Of a DNA stretch of 64,000 nt, positions 15,284 to 58,793 are shown in pieces. Below the pieces are notes generated by a model. The model saw only the letters and a list, made by a program, of their open reading frames with translations, searched no databases and had not been told where the DNA came from. Within the stretch, counting starts at the first letter, position 1; the number at the start of each line of letters is the position of its first letter. Origin of the DNA: Escherichia coli (GTDB taxonomy: Bacteria; Pseudomonadota; Gammaproteobacteria; Enterobacterales; Enterobacteriaceae). Made by a program: the position numbers and the translations under genes. The DNA is taken from NCBI RefSeq assembly GCF_003334355.1, contig NZ_QOWP01000008.1, one strand, 5' to 3'.

Positions 15284-15727
15284 ATGGCAGATATCACTCT
15301 TATCAGCGGCAGCACCCTCGGCGGTGCCGAATATGTAGCAGAACACCTGGCTGAAAAGCTGGAAGAGGCGGGTTTTACCACCGAAACGCTGCACGGTCCG
15401 CTGTTGGAAGATTTATCTGCCTCGGGGATCTGGCTGATTATCAGCTCCACCCACGGTGCCGGAGATATTCCGGACAACCTTTCTCCTTTCTATGAAGCAT
15501 TGCAGGAACAGAAGCCCGATCTTTCTGCGGTCCGCTTTGGCGCAATCGGTATTGGTAGTCGTGAATATGACACCTTTTGTGGGGCTATCGATAAACTCGA
15601 GGCAGAACTCAAAAATTCCGGTGCAAAACAGACAGGCGAAACACTGAAGATCAACATTCTTGATCACGACATTCCGGAAGATCCGGCAGAAGAATGGCTG
15701 GGATCGTGGATTAATTTACTCAAATAA
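15284..15727 (+). CDS. mioC: Flavodoxin-like FMN-binding protein MioC
   Basis: 147 aa flavodoxin fold; adjacent to oriC; recognised as MioC. Confidence 0.9.
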   Translation: MADITLISGSTLGGAEYVAEHLAEKLEEAGFTTETLHGPLLEDLSASGIWLIISSTHGAGDIPDNLSPFYEALQEQKPDLSAVRFGAIGIGSREYDTFCGAIDKLEAELKNSGAKQTGETLKINILDHDIPEDPAEEWLGSWINLLK

Positions 15728-15744
15728 GTATACAGATCGTGCGA

Positions 15745-16000
15745 TCTACTGTGGATAACTCTGTCAGGAAGCTTGGATCAACCGGTAGTTATCCAAAGAA
15801 CAACCGTTGTTCAGTTTTTGAGTTGTGTATAACCCCTCATTCTGATCCCAGCTTATACGGTCCAGGATCACCGATCATTCACAGTTAATGATCCTTTCCA
15901 GGTTGTTGATCTTAAAAGCAGGATCCTTGTTATCCACAGGGCAGTGCGATCCTAATAAGAGATCACAATAGAACAGATCTCTAAATAAATAGATCTTCTT
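15745..16000. other. oriC: Chromosomal replication origin oriC (DnaA boxes R4 to R1, AT-rich 13-mer DNA unwinding element, dense GATC sites)
   Basis: Seen in sequence: tgtggataa (R4) at ~15750-15758, ttatccaca (R1) at ~15930-15938 and ttgtgtataa (R2-like) at ~15823-15832. The three 13-mers GATCTCTTATTAG, GATCTGTTCTATT and GATCTATTTATTT occur as reverse complements at ~15952-15995. The segment is densely populated with GATC sites. Confidence 0.92.
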
Positions 16001-16105
16001 TTTAATACCCAGGATCCCAGGTCTTTCTCAAGCCGACAAAGTTGAGTAGAATCCACGGCCCGGGCTTCAATCCATTTTCATACCGCGTTATGCGAGGCAA
16101 TCACC

Positions 16106-49635: not shown

Positions 49636-50883
49636 TCAGCCAAATTTAGGTAACACGTTAAAGACGTTACCGAACCAGCATAAAATTACGGTTATACCAA
49701 AGAGAATGACAATCGCCGGAATAAGATTGCCGCCCCAGACCGTGAACATCTGATTGGGAAACTTCTTGCGAGCTTTGATTGCAAGCACTGCGGGAATAAT
49801 GACCGCCCAGATGGTGGCGCACAGCCCGGCACCGCCGATCCCGTAAATAAAGCCGTTCGGGAAGATCAGATACAACAACGCAGGTGGCAGGAAGGTTAAC
49901 AGCACGGTTTTGAAACGCCCGCCGTGGGAGTTATCAATCTTAAACAGGTCCGCCAGATAATCGAACAACCCCAGCGTGACACCAAAGAACGAACTGGCAA
50001 CAGCTAAGTTAGAGAACACCAGCAGGCAAAACTCGATAATGCCGTGCTGTTTGGTGCCGAGGAACGATTTCACCAGCGAATCAACGTTGCCGCCTGAGGA
50101 GATTATCGCCTTAAAGCTTTCGCGCGGAATATTCCCCATCGTGCAATAGAGCCAGAAGAGATAAATCACCAGCGCCAGCAGCGAACCAAATACCACGCTT
50201 TTGATTAACTTATCTTTGCGTTTTCCATAGCAAATAATCAGGCTGGGAATATTGCCGTGGAAACCAAATGACGCCAGACACACCGGCAAAGCCATAAAAA
50301 TATACGGGAAGTAAGACGTTCCCGCAGTGGTGCTGGTGGCATCGCGCAGGATGGAGTAATCGACCTGGAAGAAGAAAGAACCAAACACGATCACAAAGGA
50401 GATAATCTTCAGCCCGAGGAACAATGAGGTAATGCGACTGGCGGCTAACGAACTTATCCACAATACGCTGGCAACGAAAATGGCTGTGCAGATCCCGACA
50501 ATACGTGGATTAGCGTGATAGCCCAAATTCATTGATATCGTTTCACTAATGATCGCACCATTAGCAGAGATATAGGCATAAGTGAGGATATAGAGAACGA
50601 AGGCAACGGTAATACCGCTGATAATGTTCCAGGTGTTACCGATTAAATCTTTGGTGATGGTGTTAAAACTGGAGCCGACAGGATAATTTAAATTTGCTTC
50701 TAATAACAATAACCCGGAATGAAGCATTGAAAACCAGGCAATGATAAGGATAAAGGCACCCCAGAAAAACCAGGCACCGGCAAGATCAACAGGTAAAGCA
50801 AACATACCTCCACCAATTACTGTACCTGCTATAACCATAACACCCCAAAATGCAGAGTGCTTTTTTTCAGCTTGATCAGTCAT
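49636..50883 (-). CDS. tnaB: Low-affinity tryptophan permease TnaB
   Basis: 415 aa aromatic amino-acid permease; downstream of tnaA in the same operon. Confidence 0.93.
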   Translation of the reverse strand: MTDQAEKKHSAFWGVMVIAGTVIGGGMFALPVDLAGAWFFWGAFILIIAWFSMLHSGLLLLEANLNYPVGSSFNTITKDLIGNTWNIISGITVAFVLYILTYAYISANGAIISETISMNLGYHANPRIVGICTAIFVASVLWISSLAASRITSLFLGLKIISFVIVFGSFFFQVDYSILRDATSTTAGTSYFPYIFMALPVCLASFGFHGNIPSLIICYGKRKDKLIKSVVFGSLLALVIYLFWLYCTMGNIPRESFKAIISSGGNVDSLVKSFLGTKQHGIIEFCLLVFSNLAVASSFFGVTLGLFDYLADLFKIDNSHGGRFKTVLLTFLPPALLYLIFPNGFIYGIGGAGLCATIWAVIIPAVLAIKARKKFPNQMFTVWGGNLIPAIVILFGITVILCWFGNVFNVLPKFG

Positions 50884-56303: not shown

Positions 56304-56626
56304 AATTTTTCCAACGCTTCCGAGAGAGCACGGTTATCGAGGTCGGCAACCCCTTTTTTCGCCACCACCACGAAATCCATAGCCGGGAGTTCATGTTGGC
56401 GCAGACGGAAGCTTTCACGCGTCAGACGTTTAATCCGATTGCGTTCATGGGCGCGTCGAACGTTTTTCTTGGCGACTGTAAGACCGATACGGGGATGCCC
56501 CAGCGAATTCAGGCGGCCGAGAATGGTAATTTGCGGCGTGCCAGCCCGTTGTGGCTGCTGGAAGACGAATGTGAATTGACTGGGAGTTAACAAGCGTAAC
56601 TCCCTGGGAAATGCGAGCTTAACCAC
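56267..56626 (-). CDS. rnpA: RNase P protein component RnpA
   Basis: 119 aa basic protein; recognised. Confidence 0.93.
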
Positions 56627-56642
56627 TCAGGGGTTAGCTTTA

Positions 56643-56795
<153 letters not shown>

Positions 56796-57039
56796 CTAAA
56801 CTTGAATAAATTCAATGGCTTTATTGGATATCCGCCGAAAAATGAAACGATGGACACCGAAGCCATGGGTGATTAAAGAGGCCGGATTGTAATAATTGTA
56901 CACTCCGGAGTCAATTCTCTTTCCTTATTTACCGCGCTTTTCCGCACCTTTTCGCAGGGAAAATGTACGACCTCACACCAGTGGAAACCAGCATGGCGCG
57001 CCGGGTGGAGGATTATACGGGCTGATGGGTAAAGCGCAA

Positions 57040-57270
57040 GGATCGTCCTGGATCTTTATTAGATCGATTAAGCCAATTTTTGTCTATGGTCATTAAATTT
57101 TCCAATATGCGGCGTAAATCGTGCCCGCCTCGCGGCAGGATCGTTTACACTTAGCGAGTTCTGGAAAGTCCTGTGGATAAATCGGGAAAATCTGTGAGAA
57201 ACAGAAGATCTCTTGCGCAGTTTAGGCTATGATCCGCGGTCCCGATCGTTTTGCAGGATCTTGATCGGGC
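57040..57270 (+). promoter_or_regulatory. dnaA promoter region (P1/P2) with consensus DnaA box and GATC cluster
   Basis: tgtggataa (consensus DnaA box, reverse orientation) at ~57172-57180, flanked by multiple GATC sites (~57041-57070 and ~57207-57265); matches the known autoregulated, methylation-sensitive dnaA promoter. Confidence 0.8.
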
Positions 57271-57389
57271 ATATAACCGCAGACAGCGGTTCGTGCGTCA
57301 CCCTCAAGCAGGGTCTTTTCGACGTACGTCAACAATCATGAATGTTTCAGCCTTAGTCATTATCGACTTTTGTTCGAGTGGAGTCCGCC

Positions 57390-58793
57390 GTGTCACTTTC
57401 GCTTTGGCAGCAGTGTCTTGCCCGATTGCAGGATGAGTTACCAGCCACAGAATTCAGTATGTGGATACGCCCATTGCAGGCGGAACTGAGCGATAACACG
57501 CTGGCCCTGTACGCGCCAAACCGTTTTGTCCTCGATTGGGTACGGGACAAGTACCTTAATAATATCAATGGACTGCTAACCAGTTTCTGCGGAGCGGATG
57601 CCCCACAGCTACGTTTTGAAGTCGGCACCAAACCGGTGACGCAAACGCCACAAGCGGCAGTGACGAGCAACGTCGCGGCCCCTGCACAGGTGGCGCAAAC
57701 GCAGCCGCAACGTGCTGCGCCTTCTACGCGCTCAGGTTGGGATAACGTCCCGGCCCCGGCAGAACCGACCTATCGTTCTAACGTAAACGTCAAACACACG
57801 TTTGATAACTTCGTTGAAGGTAAATCTAACCAACTGGCGCGCGCGGCGGCTCGCCAGGTGGCGGATAACCCTGGCGGTGCCTATAACCCGTTGTTCCTTT
57901 ATGGCGGCACGGGTCTGGGTAAAACTCACCTGCTGCATGCGGTGGGTAACGGCATTATGGCGCGCAAGCCGAATGCCAAAGTGGTTTATATGCACTCCGA
58001 GCGCTTTGTTCAGGACATGGTTAAAGCCCTGCAAAACAACGCGATCGAAGAGTTTAAACGCTACTACCGTTCCGTAGATGCACTGCTGATCGACGATATT
58101 CAGTTTTTTGCTAATAAAGAACGATCTCAGGAAGAGTTTTTCCACACCTTCAACGCCCTGCTGGAAGGTAATCAACAGATCATTCTCACCTCGGATCGCT
58201 ATCCGAAAGAGATCAACGGCGTTGAGGATCGTTTGAAATCCCGCTTCGGTTGGGGACTGACTGTGGCGATCGAACCGCCAGAGCTGGAAACCCGTGTGGC
58301 GATCCTGATGAAAAAGGCCGACGAAAACGACATTCGTTTGCCGGGCGAAGTGGCGTTCTTTATCGCCAAGCGTCTACGATCTAACGTACGTGAGCTGGAA
58401 GGGGCGCTGAACCGCGTCATTGCCAATGCCAACTTTACTGGACGGGCGATCACCATCGACTTCGTGCGTGAGGCGCTGCGCGACTTGCTGGCATTGCAGG
58501 AAAAACTGGTCACCATCGACAATATTCAGAAGACGGTGGCGGAGTACTACAAGATCAAAGTCGCGGATCTCCTTTCCAAGCGTCGATCCCGCTCGGTGGC
58601 GCGTCCGCGCCAGATGGCGATGGCGCTGGCGAAAGAGCTGACTAACCACAGTCTGCCGGAGATTGGCGATGCGTTTGGTGGCCGTGACCACACGACGGTG
58701 CTTCATGCCTGCCGTAAGATCGAGCAGTTGCGTGAAGAGAGCCACGATATCAAAGAAGATTTTTCAAATTTAATCAGAACATTGTCATCGTAA
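57390..58793 (+). CDS. dnaA: Chromosomal replication initiator DnaA
   Basis: ORF-track 471 aa trimmed to the GTG start at [14 protein letters not shown] (467 aa); AAA+ Walker [12 protein letters not shown]; C-terminal DNA-binding domain. Confidence 0.95.

Follow-up and report, generated by a model that had tools for sequence, protein, structure and literature searches.

The circuits that control the dnaA promoter have been known since the 1980s and 1990s, and work on the Escherichia coli K-12 dnaA promoter region reportedly includes Hansen et al. 1982, Braun et al. 1985, Atlung et al. 1985, Campbell & Kleckner 1990 and Speck et al. 1999.

Both dnaA promoters (dnaAp1 and dnaAp2, hereafter p1 and p2) are repressed by DnaA, and the DnaA box is essential to this autoregulation (PMC5835720, PMC8203912). 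Removal of Box 1 alone leaves some autoregulation; full repression requires Box 2 together with sites specific for ATP-DnaA, for example AGATCT, which is a DnaA-ATP box (PMC8203912). The outcome of binding varies with the level of DnaA-ATP: at low levels, DnaA on Box 1 and Box 2 activates p2, and at higher levels an oligomer scaffold occludes RNA polymerase (PMC466948). The promoter is still in use as a single-cell reporter (PMC466948).

The same promoters respond to replication of the DNA that carries them. SeqA on the GATC sites of the dnaA promoter represses transcription (PMC5835720, PMC466948, PMC13337833), and the dnaA region is hemimethylated and sequestered for ~1/5 of a doubling time after fork passage, in a SeqA-dependent manner and with both promoters inactive (PMC5835720, PMC13337833). 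For the prolonged, SeqA-dependent hemimethylation, PMC5835720 and PMC13337833 cite Campbell & Kleckner 1990 and Lu et al. 1994. Methylation by Dam, for its part, stimulates p2 ~2-fold (PMC5835720). When several of the promoter GATCs are removed, initiation synchrony stays intact, and the GATCs of the -10 and -35 elements affect SeqA repression little (PMC466948); the physiological weight of each site is therefore modest.

Two published layouts of the region are available for comparison. The account of Hansen & Atlung 2018 (PMC5835720) places a DnaA box between p1 and p2 and counts "9 GATC sites within 225 bp", with one GATC in the p2 -35 element, another in the p2 -10 element, and a Travers box, CCGCGG, immediately before +1. 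For P2, Iuliani et al. 2024 (PMC466948) give five GATCs, of which two fall in the -10 and -35 elements and the other three lie downstream of the start, with Box 1 and Box 2 upstream; the three downstream GATCs are the SeqA sites mutated in their 'm3SeqA' reporter. That paper also describes the p2 discriminator and ppGpp control of P2, and mentions that SeqA binds GATCs 'within the dnaA gene itself'. Box 2 is a high-affinity site upstream of p2 in both accounts (PMC466948, PMC5835720).

Two related kinds of element help to place the dnaA promoter. Like it, oriC of E. coli carries DnaA boxes amid a GATC density of ~10x the average and is SeqA-sequestered after replication (PMC5835720). In oriC, however, the boxes are numerous, three AT-rich 13-mers stand in tandem and the function is unwinding; the dnaA promoter, which acts on transcription, combines one perfect with one near-consensus box and lacks a 13-mer array. 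The mioC promoter and other DnaA-repressed promoters are compared explicitly with the dnaA promoter in PMC5835720; unlike the mioC type, the dnaA promoter can be repressed only in part and undergoes sequestration via its GATC cluster.

Here, we follow up an initial annotation of a 64-kb stretch of E. coli DNA ("the window" throughout, meaning the whole stretch that was analysed). That annotation, made from the letters alone, had pointed to a perfect DnaA box within a cluster of GATC sites between rpmH and dnaA, and had read the two together as DnaA autorepression and SeqA sequestration of the dnaA promoter.

Materials and methods

This analysis covers which sequence features are present, how far they exceed expectation, whether they are identical to a reference and how well they are conserved; statements on binding, repression and the kinetics of hemimethylation come from the literature. 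For comparison between species, species-representative genomes were scanned with a degenerate DNA pattern located inside the dnaA coding region, and hence blind to promoter features, which returned 120 loci; in 72 of these 120 (the window itself counted), rpmH lies within 1.2 kb upstream of dnaA. An alignment of 65 loci was anchored on Box 1 and has a mean column identity to E. coli of 54%. Conservation of Box 1 within this anchored alignment is circular, and the independent statistic for that box is the 65 of 72 loci in which it occurs.

Results

Identity of the locus

This stretch is the E. coli K-12 dnaA promoter region itself, with dnaAp1 and dnaAp2, and not a relative of it. In the alignment of positions 56643-57500 to E. 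coli K-12 MG1655 (NC_000913.3), 858 of 858 bases were identical, which answers the comparison with a reference dnaA promoter that the initial annotation had proposed. The two share the same flanking genes, a lone consensus box between p1 and p2, nine GATCs in ~225 bp, the same GATCs in the p2 -35 and -10 elements and the same CCGCGG discriminator; there is no difference between them. Around the promoter region, mnmE, yidC, yidD, rnpA and rpmH occupy the minus strand and dnaA, dnaN, recF and gyrB the plus strand (features of the region are collected in Table 1). The rpmH-dnaA spacer (56784-57389) is 606 bp long; of 5,426 complete E. coli genomes, all but one (5,425) contain it at ≥95% identity, chromosomal every time. 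Upstream of the annotated dnaA start at 57390, an in-frame GTG at 57378 is given by the open reading frame listing.

Table 1. Features in and around the rpmH-dnaA spacer, in window coordinates.
Feature	Position	Strand	Remarks
rpmH, ribosomal protein L34	56643..56783	-	Annotated in MG1655 and KLY; divergent from dnaA
rpmH promoter-like site TTGACT-17-TACAAT	56886..56914	-	Only sigma-70 consensus match in 56600-57500; consensus match alone
ysdD, annotated 26-aa small ORF	57013..57093	-	Mapped from RefSeq annotation of MG1655 (b4757) and KLY; overlaps the three upstream GATCs
Upstream GATC triplet	57041..57065		Sites 57041, 57051, 57062; spacing 10 and 11 bp, about one helical turn
GATC by presumed dnaAp1 -10	57139..57142		Just upstream of the presumed -10 element
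DnaA Box 1, perfect TTATCCACA	57172-57180	-	Between dnaAp1 and dnaAp2; 'box 1' identity from PMC5835720, PMC8203912
Putative DnaA Box 2, near-consensus TTTCTCACA	57193-57201	-	21 bp downstream of Box 1, same strand; read from sequence
AGATCT, GATC of p2 -35 region	57206-57211		Sole AGATCT in spacer; also ATP-DnaA-specific box motif
dnaAp2 -10 element TATGAT	57228-57233	+	Overlaps GATC 57231-57234; read from sequence
GC-rich discriminator CCGCGG	57234-57239	+	Directly after p2 -10; read from sequence
Three close-set GATCs	57244..57266		Sites 57244, 57257, 57263; downstream of p2 start, early transcribed region
dnaA CDS, GTG start, 467 aa	57390..58793	+	Start mapped from MG1655/KLY annotation
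Second GATC cluster, inside dnaA CDS	58043..58230		7 sites in ~190 bp; 15 across whole gene

Promoter elements

Transcription from dnaAp2 probably starts at ~57240, given the sequence of its -10 element and discriminator. For dnaAp1, we take the -10 element to be TACACT at 57146-57151 and the start to lie near 57158, presumably ~82 bp upstream of p2. A scan of 56600-57500 for sigma-70 and terminator consensus picked up the rpmH-side site alone and missed both dnaA promoters because their -35 elements are weak; p1 and p2 were therefore placed from the sequence together with published descriptions. An Rfam scan of the same interval, with E up to 1, matched no RNA family, so that no known structured RNA lies in the spacer or the dnaA leader.

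DnaA boxes

The perfect box of the initial annotation, in reverse orientation between rpmH and dnaA, was confirmed; more exactly, it falls between p1 and p2. Its sequence on the sense strand of dnaA is TGTGGATAA, and it lies 48 bp upstream of the p2 -10 hexamer TATGAT (57228). The 64-kb window holds four perfect copies of TTATCCACA, compared with ~0.49 expected under uniform composition; besides Box 1, these are the two oriC copies at 15750 (-) and 15930 (+), and one at 50454. This last copy (50454-50462, +) is ~6.9 kb from dnaA, in the tnaB region by coordinate arithmetic against MG1655. The near-consensus TTTCTCACA that follows Box 1 probably corresponds to the published Box 2.

The oriC of the window (15649-16013) contains 19 GATCs, its two perfect boxes and three adjacent 13-mer-like repeats at 15952-15995 (-), and lies ~41 kb from dnaA, as in K-12.

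The GATC cluster

The initial annotation spoke of several GATC sites within ~230 bp. There are exactly nine, starting at 57041, 57051, 57062, 57139, 57207, 57231, 57244, 57257 and 57263; they span 226 bp (57041-57266) and comprise every GATC of the 606-bp spacer. At the window density of 5.3 per kb, 1.23 GATCs would be expected per 231 bp, and the Poisson probability of nine is ~6e-6, so the suggested count against expectation bears out a genuine excess. In a first-order Markov simulation, 1,731 windows of 231 nt held 0.89 GATC on average and 6 at most. When a 231-bp frame was slid along the 64-kb window, at least seven GATCs occurred elsewhere only in oriC (up to 11) and within the dnaA coding region (at least 7). 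The motif is raised across the window as a whole, with 342 occurrences compared with 251 expected. Taken together, the anatomy of the stretch matches the layouts published in PMC5835720 and PMC466948.

Conservation

Of the 72 rpmH-dnaA loci, 65 have a perfect TTATCCACA oriented as in E. coli and placed 130-420 nt upstream of the dnaA start, and spacer GATC counts across the 72 are mostly 8-12, compared with backgrounds of 2-6 per kb. The individual GATCs are kept to different degrees in the anchored alignment. The p2 -35 GATC (57207) is retained exactly in 63/65 loci and the p2 -10 GATC (57231) in 61/65; exact retention of the upstream triplet (57041, 57051, 57062) is found in 57/65, 39/65 and 47/65 species, that of the downstream sites (57244, 57257, 57263) in 34/65, 43/65 and 4/65, and the GATC at 57139 is kept in 23/65. 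Column identity over Box 2 ranges from 0.55 to 0.98 across the 65 aligned species. At the position of this weaker E. coli box (TTTCTCACA), ten Morganellaceae loci carry a relaxed-consensus TTTTACACA or TTTTGCACA that shares the strand of Box 1 and lies 22 bp downstream of it; Box 2 is therefore nearer consensus in Morganellaceae.

Among named Enterobacterales loci, a perfect box was missing only from L007, L054 (Candidatus Pantoea edessiphila) and L096 (Candidatus Steffania adelgidicola). All three are reduced genomes of insect symbionts in which the adjacency of rpmH and dnaA is kept and the GATC cluster is absent (1-4 GATCs in the spacer), and the loss of box and cluster would fit autoregulation and sequestration that have been relaxed or lost. 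Promoter architecture differs outside Enterobacterales, though Shewanella is much like E. coli: its box lies near -271, and 600 nt hold 10-12 GATCs compared with a background of 1.4-2.2 per kb. A perfect box was absent within 600 nt upstream of dnaA in Aeromonas, and Rheinheimera, Alishewanella and Alkalimonas have one at about -85 with little GATC enrichment.

Within the species, three divergent E. coli lineages (O157:H7 included) retain all nine GATCs and both boxes. All three also carry TCA in place of AAG at 57166-57168, and so gain a tenth GATC (57164) located 4 bp upstream of Box 1. The site is variable, since 13/65 species have a GATC in the 12 nt upstream of this box. The loss of box or GATCs on alignment that could have told against the initial annotation was not seen: all are present in MG1655, in the divergent E. 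coli lineages and across Enterobacterales.

The upstream triplet and ysdD

The small open reading frame ysdD overlaps the three upstream GATCs, and a literature search for ysdD returned nothing relevant. Beyond Escherichia, only a C-terminal 'RSNKDPGRSLRF' segment of YsdD is conserved. The start and length of the frame vary across genera (17-51 aa) while the GATC triplet and an adjacent AAAGCGCAAGGATC block are kept, which favours constraint at the level of DNA; the conserved element may thus be the triplet with its AAAGCGCAAGGATC block and not the YsdD peptide. The triplet lies ~180-200 bp upstream of the p2 start and falls outside the five p2-proximal GATCs that are usually discussed; by coordinate estimate, the reporter fragment of PMC466948 (-136 to +48) does not include it either.

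Discussion

The dnaA promoter region of this window is almost certainly under two converging negative circuits, autoregulation by DnaA and sequestration by SeqA. This was the reading of the initial annotation, and it is upheld by base-for-base identity to MG1655 and by the literature on that promoter (PMC5835720, PMC8203912, PMC466948, PMC13337833). The annotation lacked several refinements: the second box, the ATP-DnaA sites, activation at low DnaA and the stimulation of p2 by methylation. The locus is already known and fully described, and no new biology is added by its recovery here.

Put together from these parts, DnaA would bind the consensus Box 1 (57172-57180) and the adjacent Box 2 (57193-57201), and p2 would be stimulated as long as DnaA-ATP is low. 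As DnaA-ATP rises, the bound DnaA would nucleate a DnaA-ATP oligomer, which would spread over weaker ATP-dependent sites, including the AGATCT in the -35 region, and so occlude RNA polymerase. The nine GATCs would be methylated by Dam and become hemimethylated on fork passage, about a minute after initiation. SeqA would then bind the close-set hemimethylated GATCs that overlap the p2 -35, the -10 and the early transcribed region, and full methylation would in turn favour p2 activity.

That box and GATCs might co-occur as an accident of composition, and have no function, is vanishingly improbable. The local background is indeed already raised, as the window-wide excess of GATC indicates, but nine sites stand against 1.2 expected even at that raised background, and the simulated 231-nt windows never held more than six. 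Nor would an accident account for a box and p2 GATCs conserved across dozens of genera when the surrounding columns average 54% identity, or for the direct experimental evidence in the literature; statistics and conservation exclude chance. Hardly more credible is a cryptic or secondary origin-like element acting in DNA unwinding instead of transcription control. The region does have in common with oriC (~15649-16013) a consensus DnaA box and ~10x the average GATC density. An oriC-type origin, however, is recognized by a multi-box array and an AT-rich 13-mer element, and here there are just one perfect and one near-consensus box, no tandem GATCTnTTnTTTT 13-mers (a single, chance-level match with two mismatches, compared with three adjacent in oriC) and no AT-rich unwinding stretch, the GC content being 42-53%. 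The conserved blocks coincide instead with the parts of a promoter: its -35 element, the TATGATC of its -10 element and its discriminator.

A closer competitor leaves the promoter in place and reassigns its GATCs, which would serve mainly as DnaA-ATP sites or in Dam-dependent promoter strength and not in SeqA sequestration, and would be conserved as parts of the -35, the -10 and AGATCT-type sites. The two best-conserved GATCs, at 57207 and 57231, sit exactly in the -35/AGATCT and the -10, p2 activity rises ~2-fold on methylation (PMC5835720), and the -10 and -35 GATCs have little effect on SeqA repression (PMC466948), all of which fits such a reassignment. These roles nevertheless coexist with sequestration, complementing and not replacing it, and the downstream and upstream GATCs lie outside the core promoter elements, yet are enriched and partly conserved. 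Furthermore, the m3SeqA reporter loses its sensing of fork passage (PMC466948), and prolonged SeqA-dependent hemimethylation of the dnaA region has been measured (PMC5835720). We therefore consider it very unlikely that the GATCs have little to do with sequestration, and retain the combination of DnaA autoregulation and SeqA sequestration.

The upstream triplet could have a contribution of its own, either as a distinct, conserved nucleation site for SeqA or, equally, as an element controlling ysdD or rpmH, though we regard this as doubtful. If it were so, constraint on the DNA would be what makes the YsdD C-terminus look conserved as a protein.

The recovery of a known dnaA promoter from sequence without database searches is a good positive control for the reading that produced the initial annotation. 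The locus itself is a central control point of the bacterial cell cycle, at which the synthesis of the initiator is coupled both to initiator activity, through autoregulation, and to replication fork passage, through sequestration.
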